From NCBI GenBank assembly GCA_017406955.1, contig JAFQXM010000007.1, forward strand, positions 80,729-144,728: DNA of 64,000 nucleotides. Direction: 5' to 3'. The notes under the pieces were generated by a model. It worked only from the letters and a program-made list of their open reading frames with translations, did no database searches and was not told the origin of the DNA. The translations under genes were made by a program, and so were the position numbers. Within the stretch, counting starts at the first letter, position 1. Each line of letters begins with the position of its first letter. This DNA comes from Bacilli bacterium (lineage in GTDB: Bacteria > Bacillota_I > Bacilli_A > RF39 > UBA660). Below, in pieces: positions 20,088 through 26,349 of this stretch.

Positions 20088-22580
20088 ATGGGTATATTAA
20101 AAAGACTATTAGATCATGAGTATAAAGAATTAAAAAAGTTTAGAAAACTAGCTGATGAAATAGATGCTTTAGACGAAGAATATTCTAAACTTTCAGATAG
20201 TAAATTAAAAGATAAAACAGATGAGTTTAAAGAAAGATTATTAAAAGGAGAAACTCTAGATGATATCTTAGTAGAAGCATTCGCAACTGCTAGAGAAGCT
20301 TCATATAGAGTTATTGGAGAAAAACATTTTTATGTACAAATACTAGGTGGACTTGCTATTCACTATGGTAATATTGCAGAAATGAAAACAGGTGAAGGAA
20401 AAACTTTAACTTGTGTACTTCCAGGTTATTTAAATGCACTAACTGGAGATGGAGTTCATGTAATTACAGTTAATGAATACTTAGCTAGCCGTGATGCTGA
20501 ATGGATGGGTGAAATATATAGATTCTTAGGATTAACAGTAGGAGTTAATACAAGGGACTTATCACCTTCAGAAAAACAAGAAGTATATAACTGTGATATT
20601 CTTTATTCAACTAATAATGAAATAGGATTTGATTACTTAAGAGATAATATGGTTATTAAAAAAGAAGATAGAGTACAAAGACCATTAAATTTTGCTATTA
20701 TCGATGAAGTTGATTCAGTATTAATAGATGAGGCTAGAACTCCATTAATTATATCTGGTGGAGAAATGAATAGTGCTAATCTATATATAGATGCAGATAG
20801 ATTTGCTAAAAGTCTAAAAGAAGAAAAAGACTTTATCTATGATGAAAAAAGTAAAAGTGTATCCCTAAATGAAAGTGGTACAGATAAAGCAGAAAAACAT
20901 TTCCATATAGATAATTTATATGATATAAACAACGCAACACTAGTACACTTTATAAACCAAGCGCTACGTGCAAACTACTCAATGAAAAATGATGTAGACT
21001 ATGTAGTACAAGATGATGAAGTAGTAATAGTAGATCAATTTACTGGACGTTTAATGAAGGGAAGAGCTTTCTCAGATGGACTTCACCAAGCATTAGAAGC
21101 TAAAGAAGGAGTAACTATCAATGAAGAAACTAAGACTCTTGCTACTATAACATTCCAAAACTTATTTAGAATGTATAAAAAACTATCTGGTATGACAGGT
21201 ACTGCTAAAACAGAAGAAGAAGAGTTTAGAAATATCTATAATATGTATGTTATAGAAATACCAACTAATAAAGAAGTAATAAGAATAGATGCACCAGATT
21301 TAGTATATGCAACACAAGAAGCTAAGTATAAAGCTATAATTAACTTCGTAAAAGAATGTTATGAAAAAGGTCAACCTGTTCTTATTGGTACTATAGCTAT
21401 TGAAACAAGTGAATTAATTTCTAAATTATTAAAACAAGCACATATACCACATGAAGTATTAAATGCCAAGAATCATGCTAGAGAAGCGGAAATAATTTCT
21501 AAGATAGGTACAAAAAAATCAGTAACTATCGCAACAAATATGGCTGGACGTGGTACTGATATTAAATTATCAGATGAAATAAGAGATTTAGGTGGATTAT
21601 GTGTAGTTGGTACAGAAAGACACGAATCACGTCGTATAGATAACCAATTACGTGGACGTTCAGGACGTCAAGGAGATCCAGGATATACACAATTCTTTGT
21701 TTCAATGAAAGATGACTTAATGGTAAGATTTGGATCAGATAGAATTGGAACAATGATGGAAAGTATGGGTCTAGGAGACCAAGCTATAAGATCTAAAACA
21801 TTTACTAAATCAATAGGTACAGCTCAAAAAAGAGTTGAAGGAAATAACTTCGATATAAGAAAAAGCTTACTACAATATGATGATGTAATGAATAATCAAA
21901 GAGAAATAATCTATGATAAAAGAAATAAAATATTAGATAATGAATCAATCCATGAAATGATTCTATCTACATTTAGACATCATATAGAAGATGTAGTAAA
22001 TTCACACTTACCACCAGAAGGATATCTAACAGAAGATGATTATAAAGAAATAGTAGAATTCGTAAATGAAAACTTACTACACAAAGATATAAAGAAAAAC
22101 AAAATAGAAAACTTATCACCAGAAGAGGCAATAGATACTATAGTAGAACTAGTAACAAAAGAATATGAAGATAAGATAAAAGATATACCAGAAGAAGTAA
22201 CACAAGAATTTGAAAAAGCAATTACTCTACAAGTAGTTGATAAATATTGGATGGAACATATAAATACAATGTCTCATTTAAGAGAAGGAATCCATTTAAG
22301 AGGTTATGCTCAAGAAGATCCACTAAGAGCATATACTATGGAAGGATTCGATATGTTTGATTCAATGCTTCAAAAGATAGATCAAGACGTATCAGTATTC
22401 TTACTAAAAGCAGAAATAAGACAAAACATAGAAAGAAAAGAAGTTTCTAAAAAGAAAATAACAAACGAAGGTGGCAAAGAACCTGCTAAACAAAAACCTA
22501 AAAGAGTTAAAAAAATAGGTAGAAATGATCCATGTCCATGTGGCTCAGGACGCAAATATAAACAATGTTGTGGTAAATAA
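20088..22580 (+). CDS. secA: Preprotein translocase ATPase SecA
   Basis: 830 aa. DEAD motor. C-terminal SEC-C zinc finger [17 protein letters not shown]. Confidence 0.95.
   Translation: [830 protein letters not shown]
22560..22580 (+). repeat. Left copy of the 21-bp direct repeat AAACAATGTTGTGGTAAATAA (the secA 3' end, encoding KQCCGK*). The right copy is at 26329-26349.
   Basis: Exact 21/21 match between 22560-22580 and 26329-26349. A 24-mer match with one mismatch if extended 3 nt upstream. Confidence 0.6.
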
Positions 22581-22585
22581 GCCCG

Positions 22586-22620
22586 CAAACCCGCATAAAA
22601 TAAGGGATTGCGGGTTTTTC
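22586..22620 (+). terminator. Rho-independent terminator after secA
   Basis: AACCCGCA ... TGCGGGTT stem followed by TTTTTC. Confidence 0.5.
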
Positions 22621-22663
22621 TATGATTACAATATTTAGGTAAAAACTGACGTGTTCACTGTCC

Positions 22664-22684
22664 TAGATAAGTTTTAGATAAGTT
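22664..22684 (+). repeat. Tandem decamer TAGATAAGTT-t-TAGATAAGTT
   Basis: Read directly. The same tandem decamer recurs inverted at 22758-22780 and directly at 26178-26199. Confidence 0.7.
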
Positions 22685-22757
22685 ATTAAAATCTCACAAA
22701 CCCTTATAAAATAAGGCTAAAACATATGTTGAGACATTAATTTCAAATTAAATACAA

Positions 22758-24900: not shown

Positions 24901-25071
24901 ATGAGTGACACTATTATAGCATCCATTATAACTGGTATTGTTAGCCTTATTGTAGGTTTCATCTCTGGATATAAGTATTGCTTTAAAACAAATATTGTAA
25001 AAAGGCAATTTCAAAAAGCAAGAGATAATGCATCTCAAATTCAAGTGGGTGAACTAAATGGTAAAAAGTAA
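24901..25071 (+). CDS. Small single-TM protein (56 aa; below the ORF-track cutoff)
   Basis: Strong SD (AAGGAGGA) 7 nt upstream. Translation is MSDTIIASIITGIVSLIVGFISGYKYCFKTNIVKRQFQKARDNASQIQVGELNGKK. Overlaps the next gene's start by 14 nt. Confidence 0.4.
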   Translation: MSDTIIASIITGIVSLIVGFISGYKYCFKTNIVKRQFQKARDNASQIQVGELNGKK

Positions 25072-26164
25072 AAAAACGCAAAAAGCTGGGAACAATGTTA
25101 ACCAATATCAAATAGAAACGATTAATGTAAATGTTACCCCTGAAGATGTAAGGGATATGATAAAGAGGGAAAATGAATTGCTATTAGCAAATTCTCGAAT
25201 AGTTGCATTAGAAACAGCACAAAAACGATTAGATAATTATACGGATGTTTTAATTCCAAAACTTGTAAAAGCTGAAGTATTATCAGCGTTTAATGAACCA
25301 GAAATACAAATGTTGTATAAAAAGACAGAGGGTACAGCAATATGTACAGAGAGAAAGGCTGATTACGAAATGTTATCTGAGTTATTAATACATAAAATTA
25401 ATAAAAAGGAAGATTATTTAGTATCAGCATCAATAGAAAAGGCTATATCTGAAGTAAATAATATATCTGTAGATGCATTGATGACTTTAACATTAATTTT
25501 TTCAATTGTTACATATATTCCAGCATCTGGAAAAACAAAAGCCGGGTTAAAAGCATTAGATGATTTATACGCACATTTATTGGAATATTTTGAACTTCCT
25601 GATGATAATGATTGGAAGGATAATCTTGAAATTGTTAATGCTATTAAAACCTTTAATATTGGAAATAGTAAAAAATTAGATGACTATTTTTATGAAAGAT
25701 TTGAAGGCTATTCATCAATGGGATTAAAAATTGGAAGTGAACAATATAATGAAGCTATAAAAAAAATATTGTCTGTTAATTTACCACAGAATATATTAGT
25801 AAAAAATGATATAGATGATGAATATGTTAGAATTGAGATATTACATAAAAGCAATATTGATGATTTATCATTAACTATAAATATTAATGGCGTTTCATAT
25901 ACCAAGCCATTAACTGAAGAACAAAAAAGTGTGTTGAAAGAAATATATGATAATTATGAAGTGAAAAGCAATGATACAAAGGAAAAATTCGTTAGTATAT
26001 TGAATGAATTTGATAATATAAAAAAAATCATAGAATGGTGGAATAAAAATATTGTTAATTATTCCTTTGAAATTACACCTATAGGTAAAGTTTTAGCTTG
26101 CACTAATGCAGTAAGAATCGATAGTAGTTTGCCTAATATTATTATGAAAAATAAGTCTAAATAA
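25058..26164 (+). CDS. Hypothetical protein (368 aa), cargo of the insertion after secA
   Basis: Long ORF with normal codon usage. No recognisable motif. Confidence 0.5.
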   Translation: MVKSKKTQKAGNNVNQYQIETINVNVTPEDVRDMIKRENELLLANSRIVALETAQKRLDNYTDVLIPKLVKAEVLSAFNEPEIQMLYKKTEGTAICTERKADYEMLSELLIHKINKKEDYLVSASIEKAISEVNNISVDALMTLTLIFSIVTYIPASGKTKAGLKALDDLYAHLLEYFELPDDNDWKDNLEIVNAIKTFNIGNSKKLDDYFYERFEGYSSMGLKIGSEQYNEAIKKILSVNLPQNILVKNDIDDEYVRIEILHKSNIDDLSLTININGVSYTKPLTEEQKSVLKEIYDNYEVKSNDTKEKFVSILNEFDNIKKIIEWWNKNIVNYSFEITPIGKVLACTNAVRIDSSLPNIIMKNKSK

Positions 26165-26177
26165 AATTAAATTTTTT

Positions 26178-26199
26178 TAGATAAGTTTTTAGATAAGTT
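26178..26199 (+). repeat. Tandem decamer TAGATAAGTT-tt-TAGATAAGTT
   Basis: Read directly. It is in direct orientation relative to 22664-22684. Confidence 0.7.
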
Positions 26200-26232
26200 C
26201 TGCTAGGTTTGCCGGGTGCTACGGAGTGCTCC

Positions 26233-26349
26233 CAAGTGCAATCAAGTGCCGAATTAACGAGCCAAGTGCTCCCAAAAGCTCCCAAAATCCCCAATACAAA
26301 AGGCCATGTGGCAGTGGTAAAAAGTACAAACAATGTTGTGGTAAATAAA
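26233..26349 (+). pseudogene. Remnant of a SecA C-terminal tail / SEC-C zinc-finger (no start codon; displaced or duplicated 3' end)
   Basis: The frame reads ...[29 protein letters not shown]. The secA end reads ...[33 protein letters not shown]. The last 21 nt are identical to the secA 3' end. Followed by the terminator AGACTATTTATAGTCTTTTTTT. Confidence 0.55.
26329..26349 (+). repeat. Right copy of the secA-tail direct repeat
   Basis: See the left copy. It is embedded in a degenerate SEC-C zinc-finger reading frame. Confidence 0.6.

Follow-up and report, generated by a model that had tools for sequence, protein, structure and literature searches.

A probable non-autonomous integrative element in the last codons of secA of a Bacilli bacterium

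Introduction

Why does the end of secA occur twice, 3.8 kb apart, in this Bacilli bacterium? The window, by which we mean the whole 64-kb stretch of DNA that was analysed, contains secA, an island that ends with the second copy, and pgi:

20088..22580, + strand: secA, 830 aa (NCBIfam SecA equivalog, 1132 bits), its last 13 codons and stop codon apparently supplied by the element
26401..27591, + strand: pgi, right-hand host neighbour of the island (Pfam PGI; NCBIfam)

A sequence-only reading had proposed site-specific integration into the 3' end of secA. Here, this proposal is examined by comparison with related genomes.

Results

The duplicated secA tail

The 21-mer AAACAATGTTGTGGTAAATAA is present in exactly two copies in the 64-kb window (22560-22580 and 26328-26348), and the chance expectation for such matches is zero, even if 3 mismatches are allowed. 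The exact repeat noticed in the sequence-only reading is thus real and occurs twice, although its second copy is located at 26328-26348 and not at 26329-26349. The similarity extends over 45 nt with 80% identity (22536-22580 against 26304-26348, direct-repeat family D11). The frame before the second tail copy matches Pfam SEC-C (E = 3.4e-6), and its 15 preceding residues had been taken for diverged SecA homology. However, the DNA 5' of TGTGG at this copy is the non-coding right arm of the element, which is conserved at the DNA level in other elements. The following features were delimited around both copies:

22536..22543, + strand: inferred strand-exchange region at attL, CCA|TGTGG, located by a switch in polymorphism linkage
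22539..22580, + strand: attL core, the putative element-borne replacement tail, 13 residues coded (42-mer identical in L112, L108 and L099)
22579..22617, + strand: probable element-supplied secA terminator hairpin with the family-wide ATAAAATAAGGG (-20.5 kcal/mol, z = -4.5)
26307..26348, + strand: attR core, apparently the displaced, untranslated secA tail (13 residues), from comparison with the native tail of L006
26347..26371, + strand: presumed original secA terminator, adjoining pgi (hairpin of -7.3 kcal/mol, then T7)

The idea that the element brings a replacement tail and leaves the host tail at the far junction agrees with the polymorphisms of the cores. In L112, L108 and L099, the attL 42-mer stands before the same left arm irrespective of the upstream sequence, and cores behind the right-arm type of the window vary according to whatever lies downstream. 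The native tail of L006, the closest other species, shows 6 differences to the attR core and 12 to the attL core. Furthermore, the rare Arg codon CGC of the attL core recurs in the prophage copies of L141, L139 and L123. Since core variants travel with the downstream and not with the upstream arm, strand exchange would be placed at about CCA|TGTGG, within the Pro-Cys-Gly codons of the SEC-C motif CPCGSG; between -3 and +6, counted from TGTGG, flanking polymorphisms cease to be linked to the upstream partner and become linked to the downstream one. This position is approximate, because linkage between core and downstream arm drops from 0.96 to about 0.55-0.66 towards the left edge, and some gene conversion is possible. 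Core variation is found mostly at third codon positions, even in untranslated copies (entropy 1.17 against 0.27-0.35), and the tail peptide is intact in 67 of 85 internal copies.

In most element families, ATAAAATAAGGG lies directly 3' of the core. The separate terminator already ascribed to the second copy was recovered as an A+T-rich hairpin followed by T7 (z = -3.3), and comparable plain terminators are located 3' of secA in unoccupied-looking relatives, for example L040, L051, L071 and L072. In L006, pgi is likewise found downstream of secA, with a different gene and no second core between both, which does not represent a clean empty site.

Two conserved arms

Between the cores and the cargo, the island carries two arms:

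22581..22865, + strand: left (P') arm, from the secA stop to the first cargo gene, ~285 nt, with homologous arms elsewhere
22664..22684, + strand: two direct TAGATAAGTT repeats at +84 and +95 from the secA stop, candidate arm-type integrase sites
22758..22778, - strand: two inverted repeat copies, AACTTATCTA and AAATTATCTA, at +178 and +189 (inverted repeat I2)
22833..22841, + strand: extended -10 box TGGTATAAT at the inner boundary of the left arm, with conservation among the window, L021 and L027 (alignment A1)
26158..26306, + strand: right (P) arm, ~150 nt, non-coding, G+C-richer, with AGTGCnCCCAA-like repeats and homologous arms elsewhere
26178..26199, + strand: two direct TAGATAAGTT repeats of the right arm, at -129 and -117 from the attR core

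The left arm shares 82-86% identity with element left arms of L021, L112, L100, L108 and L099, and about 78-80% with that of L027, while the right arm shares 90-95% with those of L027, L018 and L021. A 24-mer from the right arm retrieved 36 metagenome loci, nearly all with a core ~90 nt downstream; neither an RNA structure signal (z = 0.01) nor an Rfam match was obtained for this arm. In L021, L027, L018, L112, L108 and about 30 metagenome loci, the arms of the window enclose other cargo. Both arms are found again at 40 or more loci, around at least 10 different cargo sets and never together with an integrase.

The offsets +84 and +95 recur unchanged in every window-type cassette, and the prophage arm of L123 has them too; a tandem TAGATAAGTT pair is also found in the prophage of L139. 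The inverted copies are 95% complementary to 22664-22684 and are kept in L021, L112 and L108. An A/C variant at position 7 of TAGATAAGTT covaries between the left and right arm of each element, and arm motifs differ from one integrase clade to another. An integrase would bind to the TAGATAAGTT repeats. The TGGTATAAT box is likely the promoter of the cargo; it was missed by the consensus promoter scan because it lacks a -35 match.

Cargo genes

As had been noted from the sequence alone, the interval comprises three credible ORFs, none of which encodes a recombinase:

22860..24776, + strand: cargo 1, DUF4379 treble-clef zinc-finger repeat protein with a nuclease-like core (Pfam DUF4379)
24810..24838, + strand: promoter-like site ATGACA-17-TATAAT before the second cargo unit (a consensus match only, 11/12 positions)
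24901..25071, + strand: cargo 2a, 56-aa membrane peptide whose ORF overlaps that of cargo 2b, with homologous peptides elsewhere
25058..26164, + strand: cargo 2b, LPO_1073/Vpar_1526-family protein

In cargo 1, seven DUF4379 repeats (E = 1.4e-113, 7 stretches) surround a central nuclease-like core (...GIEYDGRAWH...). The protein matches PHROGs endonuclease families, and its PDB match covers the repeat only. Its start could be 22860, 22869 or 22908, of which gene callers choose the last. The ATGACA-17-TATAAT site is the best promoter consensus match in the region. In L129, L131 and L133, Vpar_1526 genes likewise follow a peptide homologous to cargo 2a, and the overlap is the same. Any function of the cargo is putative. 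A possible role as a defence island, as suggested before, found no support: a PADLOC defence-system scan delivered nothing significant, and the cargo of sister cassettes includes tRNA synthetases, a glycosidase and a queuosine-salvage gene. One cassette cargo protein of L108 bears a SEC-C motif of its own.

Integrases and prophages at the same site

Neither the island nor the 64-kb window contains an integrase detectable by tblastn or by a profile built from 10 integrases, in line with the earlier suggestion of a decayed or satellite element. In relatives, intact tyrosine integrases occupy the secA-tail site. Together with the finding of the same arms around different cargo at this site in other species, this supports the proposed site-specific integration. 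Both integrase types found at the secA tail comprise Pfam Phage_integrase and Arm-DNA-bind_4 domains.

Temperate prophages reside at the secA tail of L123/L128, L139 and L141, and each of them has genes for an integrase, an S24 repressor and a cro-like protein. Pairs of TTAGATAAGTT or TTAGATACGTT are present in their arms, with offsets of +84/+95 as measured in L123. These arms are 66-75% identical to the left arm of the window; the match to these candidate helper prophages covers this arm only. Over the first 110 nt, the left arm and core of the window share 75% identity with the integrase-proximal arm of L141; aligning the arm only resulted in a score of 41.5, compared with -2.7 +/- 4.4 for shuffles. 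In addition, integrase-less cassettes stand beside IME-like elements with MobV relaxases in secA arrays of relatives.

Occurrence in relatives

Among related species-level genomes, 18 of 80 possess 1-4 extra tail copies, all downstream of secA and on the same strand, and at least 14 further genomes have an integrase gene or fragment that starts ~220 nt past the secA stop. In arrays of related gut Bacilli MAGs, the tail copies separate cassettes of 0.7-6.5 kb. Most of these comparative data stem from metagenome assemblies, which often break at the secA-tail repeat. The island is present in every contig that encodes the same PGI, Vpar_1526 or SecA protein, so that neither an empty site nor polymorphism was seen within the species.

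L027 shares a sister cassette of 2.1 kb with L087/L097/L103/L120, at 98.2-98.3% identity. Compared with the SecA of the window, that of L027 reaches 83% identity and that of the other hosts 42-48%, and the secA 3' flank of these other hosts aligns with that of L027 over only ~120 nt (76-77%). This cassette has spread horizontally between hosts.

Discussion

The locus is bounded by a repeat, its arms are conserved while the cargo is swapped, and prophages with a matching arm reside at the same site. We consider it probable (roughly 0.75) that 22581-26348 represents a CIME-like prophage derivative, a non-autonomous integrative element that a heterobivalent (lambda-type) tyrosine integrase encoded elsewhere placed in the final secA codons. 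Its attachment site would be the DNA that codes for the SEC-C zinc finger. On the secA-proximal side, the element would provide 13 codons of replacement tail together with stop codon and terminator, which would keep SecA intact, and the host tail and terminator would have been displaced 3.8 kb downstream, beside pgi. As sequence and spacing of the left-arm TAGATAAGTT repeats are those of prophages with an arm-binding integrase at the same site, the island is best read as their stripped-down derivative or hitchhiker. It would move only with an integrase supplied in trans or by a neighbouring array element, and we infer that the copy in the window may still be mobile. The candidate promoter of the left arm would drive the zinc-finger-repeat, nuclease-like protein as well as the conserved pair of small membrane peptide and Vpar_1526 protein.

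An immobile scar of a prophage is less likely: a temperate phage of the L139/L141 type might have suffered an internal deletion from integrase to lysis genes, leaving two att arms and a few lysogenic-conversion genes. The homology of the left arm to prophage arms, the absent integrase and the presence of the island in every contig of this species would fit, and fragmented integrases in other arrays demonstrate that decay occurs. However, ~175 nt of the left arm beyond the prophage-homologous part, including inverted repeats and promoter, are common to at least 10 cargo sets, a pattern that independent deletions would not generate, and the integrase-less sister cassette spread with 98% identity between very different hosts. 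The scar differs from the non-autonomous element in present mobility only; on the origin both agree.

That a dedicated chromosomal recombinase serially captures promoter-bearing cassettes at a fixed site at the secA end, comparable to an integron, is very improbable. Such a platform would account for arrays of up to four small integrase-less cassettes with the same orientation and short end site, and for their diverse cargo. Yet no recombinase gene is located beside secA, where hpf, a cold-shock gene and an agr-like locus lie upstream; each cassette has two long, unlike arms with paired repeats instead of a single attC-like hairpin; and the recombinases of the arrays are phage-type integrases inside elements. 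We give hardly any credence to an origin without a mobile element, in which the second tail would be the remnant of an unrelated SEC-C gene or a duplication of the secA end by homologous recombination. Many unrelated proteins do end in C-terminal SEC-C motifs (several families among the NCBIfam matches), and the cargo protein of L108 also contains one. Nevertheless, upstream of the second tail DNA is conserved and no ORF is, with stops in homologues, and an intact unrelated SEC-C gene is not involved. Furthermore, the exact end boundary is the same in >80 internal copies, and hosts whose SecA is ~45% identical to that of the window carry these arms as well. These observations contradict both versions.

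The non-autonomous element marks a busy insertion hotspot at the secA tail in uncultured gut bacteria. In the literature searched, we found neither a description of this hotspot nor secA zinc-finger codons as an integration target.

Comparison with known systems

The lambdoid prophages phage 21 and e14 integrate by a tyrosine integrase at the 3' end of a protein gene, icd of E. coli. Their attB lies in the coding 3' end, and they carry a replacement end whose synonymously differing terminal codons keep the protein functional. Likewise, the secA element would supply alternative terminal codons and leave the displaced end at the other junction. In contrast, its replacement comprises only 13 codons, the window's element lacks any phage functions, and several elements accumulate in tandem at the secA site.

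CIMEs have attL and attR at their ends but no genes for integration or transfer, and in the proposed model they move via the integrase of a neighbour (PMC5704250). The secA cassettes resemble them in these traits. As in the tandem accretion at att sites of ICEs and IMEs, such as relatives of ICESt1 of Streptococcus thermophilus, they also form tandem arrays with elements that bear an integrase, and the site is again the 3' end of a conserved gene. However, the arm compared here, the left one, resembles temperate prophages and not ICEs, and the cassettes are much smaller (0.7-4 kb in this comparison). Instead of being decay products that arose one by one, they belong to a coherent family in which the arms are conserved, a promoter lies inside and the cargo is exchangeable, and their target would be the secA zinc-finger codons.

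With integron cassettes they share small size, mostly one to three genes, diversity, one-orientation stacks at a fixed site and a foreign recombinase. Nevertheless, attC hairpins and an IntI/attI/Pc platform are missing, and each secA cassette has two long asymmetric arms, arm-type repeats and a promoter of its own. The likeness is functional only, and secA cassettes are not members of this group.

Tycheposons of Prochlorococcus carry cargo, integrate repeatedly at one site and push older elements inward (bioRxiv 10.1101/2020.12.28.424599). As in tycheposon islands, part-copies of the target lie between neighbours, degenerate remnants pile up, and the host genomes are streamlined (bioRxiv 10.1101/2020.12.28.424599). 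Yet tycheposons target tRNA genes and typically possess their own recombinase and replication module, both of which window-type cassettes lack, whereas the target in secA is a protein-coding tail that needs to be rebuilt.

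The end of secA as an integration hotspot

The zinc-finger-coding end of secA is a heavily used attachment site for temperate phages, mobilisable elements and tiny cassettes. A SecA scan with one genome per species delivered 80 loci of uncultured gut Bacilli, which are labelled Bacilli, Tenericutes, Mollicutes or Erysipelotrichaceae and originate from human, ruminant and rabbit gut (L numbers denote loci of relatives, L006-L085 being species-level MAGs and the others metagenome contigs, IMG/VR contigs and prophages). Eighteen of the 80 genomes comprise one to four extra copies of the secA tail, with four in L023 and three in L027; every such copy follows secA in the same orientation. 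The stretches ahead of these extra copies are unrelated and contain stop codons, and the units between tail copies measure 0.8-6.5 kb, with one 0.7-kb unit among the metagenome loci. In many other genomes a tyrosine integrase of ~435 aa starts ~220 nt past the secA stop, as an intact gene in L032, L036, L074, L075, L084, L045, L058 and L076 and in fragments elsewhere. Thus, extra tails and integrases across the relatives make the secA end a clade-wide integration hotspot. Plain terminators follow secA in other species.

Some of the integrase-bearing secA-tail elements carry a MobV relaxase, and the one in L074 (12709-19777; human-gut MAG UMGS532) encodes a Tet(M)-like EF-G-family GTPase (16686-18605) and a streptomycin adenylyltransferase (18923-19777). 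Given such resistance genes and the extra tRNA synthetases found at the site, the secA end is a route by which resistance and accessory genes enter a host lineage of abundant but uncultured human and animal gut bacteria. Nearly all comparative data are metagenome assemblies, which are prone to break at the secA-tail repeat: 30 of the 80 contigs (L006-L085) stop at most 300 nt from the secA stop, and 8 of those 30 break off near SecA residue 818, at the start of the repeated core. Since the array breaks about three-eighths of the MAG contigs at secA, the flexible gene pool of the hotspot is probably under-represented in binned genomes. A sublineage (L021, L032, L036, L038, L066, L071, L075, L077) is marked by a SecA that ends ...QCHGK instead of ...QCCGK, and the same His codon is often found in extra cores in or near such hosts, for example in copy 2 of L021, in L092 and in L118.

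For the species of the window itself, exact-protein look-ups with PGI, Vpar_1526 and SecA returned same-species contigs only, all of them occupied, so that no empty site was found, nor was a circle junction seen for this species. In the closest species, L006, secA and pgi are separated by a gene for a 286-aa membrane protein, and a second core is missing; its site is therefore neither empty nor occupied in the manner of the window. The surroundings of the island offer two further observations. Just downstream of pgi, L006 possesses an intact gene for a 1964-aa repeat-rich surface protein (14782-20676), of which the window retains only a stub, an 81-aa ORF (28123-28368) that is homologous to the C-terminal end and follows a deaminase gene. 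An agr-like quorum-sensing locus (16202-19120) lies just upstream of the csp-hpf-secA block and consists, according to gene calls on the identical contig L086, of a LytTR regulator, a HATPase_c_5 kinase and AgrB on the opposite strand.

Boundaries of the island and origin of the two tails

In the window, secA spans 20088-22580. Its final 21 nt (AAACAATGTTGTGGTAAATAA) are found exactly once more, at 26328-26348, while no match of a 21-mer is expected by chance, even at three mismatches. The second repeat copy that had been proposed from the sequence alone is real, but its coordinates were placed one base too far to the right. Similarity reaches 45 nt at 80% identity (22536-22580 against 26304-26348), and a direct repeat of the core in the same orientation is present at both junctions (attL, 22539-22580; attR, 26307-26348). 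SecA is intact after the insertion and reads into a complete SEC-C motif (Pfam E = 4.1e-11). A strong hairpin and a T run directly follow its stop codon, and a weaker hairpin follows the second tail. The frame preceding that second copy matches Pfam SEC-C as well; the residues ahead of it, which the sequence-only reading had taken for diverged SecA, are instead a translation of the element's non-coding right arm. The base composition of the island is not distinct from its surroundings.

To which partner each tail belongs can be judged from three lines of evidence. The attR core shows 6 differences to the native tail of the nearest species L006, the attL core 12. The attL core carries a rare CGC arginine codon, and a 42-mer identical to it precedes the same left arm in the cassettes L112, L108 and L099, regardless of whether secA or another element lies upstream. 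Finally, we analyzed core linkage in 162 core copies with their flanks, comparing pairs that share the downstream arm only with pairs that share the upstream arm only. Variable core positions track the downstream arm, with an identity of 0.96 at the stop codon that declines to ~0.55-0.66 at positions 6-12 (background identity in this comparison is 0.35-0.6). Linkage to the upstream arm ends at -3, and none is seen from position +6 onward. As the core follows the downstream arm, the attL 42-mer recurs and attR is nearer to the L006 tail, the earlier picture of a replacement tail brought by the element and a displaced host tail at the far junction holds.

Judged from this linkage, the 42-nt core is, almost in full, a piece of the left (P') arm of the following element, and the switch between -3 and +6 places the exchange in CCA|TGTGG. 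Strand exchange would accordingly be expected within CCATGTGG, and a reconstructed empty attB would read secA...CCA, then TGTGGCAGTGGTAAAAAGTAC..., then AAGACTATTTATAGTC. An excised circle or a tandem copy would join the right arm (26158-26306), the core and the left arm (22581-22700) in this order. We infer this crossover position, as we do the pairing of integrases with repeats and the present mobility of the island. Core copies of all kinds vary mainly at third codon positions (entropy 1.17 vs 0.27-0.35), and 67 of the 85 untranslated internal copies still encode an intact tail, which is expected if each of them is the repair tail of the next element.

Arms of the island

The island is framed by two arms of different content, between which the cargo is located.

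Features of the island in window coordinates
22664-22684, direct TAGATAAGTT pair at +84/+95, just within the left junction
22758-22778, inverted TAGATAAGTT pair at +178/+189, ~75 nt deeper than the first pair
22833-22841, extended -10 box TGGTATAAT, conserved, ahead of the cargo in the left arm
22860-24776, DUF4379 protein, seven zinc-finger repeats around a nuclease-like core
24901-25071, 56-aa membrane peptide
25058-26164, LPO_1073/Vpar_1526-family protein, 368 aa, overlapping the peptide gene
26178-26199, direct TAGATAAGTT pair at -129/-117, just within the right junction

The left arm comprises the secA tail, the terminator, four candidate arm-type repeats and the extended -10 box, the right arm (P) two candidate arm-type repeats and a conserved, G+C-richer spacer. 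A structured RNA was considered for the G+C-rich right arm and rejected, given a folding z of 0.01 and no match in Rfam. Being core-distant, present in both arms and conserved in their offsets, the TAGATAAGTT repeats are candidate arm-type sites. Repeat position 7 is either A or C, and the two arms of any one cassette agree in this variant. Both TAGATAAGTT and TAGATACGTT might represent putative arm-type sequences for the N-terminal domain of an integrase.

Window-type cassettes and their spread

The arms recur elsewhere with other contents. The island's first ~285 nt are 78-86% identical to the starts of units in L021, L027, L018, L112, L108, L100 and L099, over its last 175-190 nt it matches the ends of the same units at 86-95% identity, and the cargo between these shared arms differs each time. 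Searching with a 24-mer of the right arm revealed another 36 metagenome loci, and in almost every one a tail copy follows ~90 nt downstream; across them at least 10 cargo sets lie within the same arm pair, and none includes an integrase. Cassette cargoes comprise full-length methionyl-tRNA synthetase, tyrosyl-tRNA synthetase, a GH10 glycosidase, a queuosine-salvage protein, DUF4238, DUF5677 and HA-repeat nuclease proteins, and an NTPase_I-T protein. The tRNA-synthetase, GH10, queuosine-salvage and NTPase_I-T cargoes were seen in cassettes of the window type or neighbouring types in L090, L092, L113, L087 and L026.

A unit of 2.1 kb is shared by L027 and the metagenome loci L087, L097, L103 and L120 at 98.2-98.3% identity. 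The SecA of L027 is 83% identical to that of the window, those of the four other hosts only 42-48%, and their secA 3' flank aligns with that of L027 over only ~120 nt at 76-77%. A near-identical unit in such divergent hosts shows that an integrase-less member of the family recently passed from one distant host to another and inserted at the same site.

Likely recombinase

In agreement with the sequence-only reading, the island contains no integrase detectable with Pfam, tblastn or a profile HMM built from 10 integrases. Nor was one found in the rest of the 64-kb window. The island gave no match in the phage collection and only short matches to its zinc-ribbon repeats in the plasmid collection. 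Window-type cassettes adjoin integrase-bearing elements in L123, L094 and L109, and no such neighbour is present in the window.

As to which integrase might serve the island, each family of elements at the site repeats an 8-11-nt motif of its own in both arms. Where an integrase is present, this motif shifts with the integrase clade (GTGGACAA, TGCGAACA, ATGTGCAC, TGCAAACA), and TAGATA occurs in none. These motifs differ from TAGATAAGTT, and the IME-type integrases are thus unlikely partners for the arms of the island. A second integrase family is represented in L090 by a 374-aa protein on the opposite strand that adjoins the left junction, where the arms contain TTAGAACCATT pairs. Both L074-type and L090/L128-type integrases combine the Pfam domains Phage_integrase and Arm-DNA-bind_4, and they lie ~220 nt (co-oriented) or ~125-130 nt (convergent) from the secA stop.

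Homologues of the L090 integrase were found in two IMG/VR contigs (L123/L127 and L124/L128) within the lysogeny module of temperate phages, which follows the secA-tail core and consists of the integrase, an S24 CI-like repressor, a cro-like gene and recombination genes. The arm of this module carries TTAGATAAGTTTTAGATAAGTT, a 22-mer that no other of the 2.9 million viral contigs contains, and the L123 repeats lie at +84/+95 from the stop, the offsets of the window and of every window-type cassette. A protein search gave more than 1,300 relatives of this prophage integrase; in the phage-record collection searched, no integrase exceeds 29% identity to it. In three of four contexts examined the integrase gene is convergent with secA, 125-130 nt from the stop, and stands beside an S24 repressor; in the fourth it adjoins another integrase in an array. 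The prophage arms contain pairs of TTAGATAAGTT (L139), TTAGATACGTT (L141) or related motifs, and the CGC arginine codon is common to the cores of these prophages. L139 lies on contig ERZ27249360 NODE_34 and L141 on ERZ920188 scaffold_10.

The core and the first 110 nt of the left arm of the window are 75% identical to prophage L141, 70% to L139 and 66% to L123, and the left arm alone aligns to L141 with a score of 41.5 (shuffled sequence, -2.7 +/- 4.4). The secA-proximal arm of the island is consequently homologous to the integrase-proximal arm of the prophages. In IMG/VR, neither the right-arm 24-mer nor the 12-nt-spaced right-arm pair found a match, and only an 11-nt-spaced pair was detected, in two prophage contigs; the prophage right arm is hence unseen. 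A matched short-arm pair and a phage integrase would constitute a compact recombination module. For the copy in the window, a helper may be encoded at another place in the genome; alternatively, this copy may be stranded.

Cargo

The three cargo ORFs that had been counted before proved to be three credible ORFs, none of which is a recombinase. Their products match only DUF4379, endonuclease-type PHROGs and Vpar_1526, and against described defence families PADLOC gave insignificant matches only (E = 0.015-0.026). The core of the DUF4379 protein (...GIEYDG...H...) appears nuclease-like, as judged from its sequence and the endonuclease matches in PHROGs. A protein of the L112 cassette (6631-8310) contains the same type of core with six HA (helicase-associated) domains in place of the seven DUF4379 zinc fingers, and comparison with window 22860-24776 suggests a modular swapping of DNA-binding repeats around a common core.

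The membrane peptide (53-62 aa) and the Vpar_1526 protein always form an overlapping two-gene pair (window, L129, L131, L133) and are a candidate for functional study. The pair also occurs away from secA and travels between unrelated neighbourhoods, either mobile or rich in defence genes: a HaeIII-type restriction-modification system, Abi_2 and a serine recombinase adjoin it in L131, SocA, MazG-like and SLFN-helicase genes surround it in L129, and next to it in L133, among housekeeping genes, are transposase fragments. The DUF4379 nuclease is absent from these other contexts and thus no fixed partner of the pair. Family-wide, the cargo is a mixed bag and not specifically defensive. The 393-aa DUF4238 cargo protein of the L108 cassette has its own internal SEC-C motif (CPCGSNKKYKKCC), so that at this site such motifs occur inside cargo as well, apart from the att core.

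Comparison with known systems

Mobile elements are already known to insert into the 3' end of a coding gene and supply a replacement for it, to accrete in tandem, and to occur as att-flanked derivatives devoid of an integrase. Phage 21 and e14 at icd are comparators for the first of these behaviours, and for tycheposon islands tandem accretion is likewise established; CIMEs and IMEs are further comparators. Our literature search yielded no paper that describes the secA tail as an attachment site, although a library search cannot prove such an absence.

Several known systems might be considered for the island. An integron cassette would possess a single attC, whereas each unit here has two long asymmetric arms, and upstream of secA one finds hpf, csp and agr-like genes in place of an intI-attI-Pc platform. 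A phage satellite of the PICI/SaPI type is contradicted by the lack of an own integrase, a replication module and packaging-hijack genes. One might further speculate that window-type units are not decay products at all but specialised, integrase-less 'plug-in' cassettes, which exploit the integrases of secA-targeting temperate phages and shuffle defence, tRNA-synthetase and metabolic genes in an integron-like manner. Each unit would then combine conserved att arms of the phage type with a promoter of its own and a built-in tail that repairs secA, and genes would be shuffled across distantly related gut Bacilli with small genomes. We regard this idea as tentative and, on balance, rather unlikely.

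Taken together, the island is an integrative cassette that is non-autonomous and has att arms of the prophage type. As in lambda-type att systems, core repeats, an intact target and candidate arm sites on both sides are present, and integrases with an arm-binding domain occur at the same site in relatives; in contrast to such systems, the island has no integrase of its own. In concept it is closest to a CIME, the comparator for integrase-less att-flanked derivatives (PMC5704250): it keeps attL and attR and is devoid of integration and transfer genes. However, its left arm is homologous to the arms of prophages and not to IME-type arms (TTGTCCAC and related motifs).
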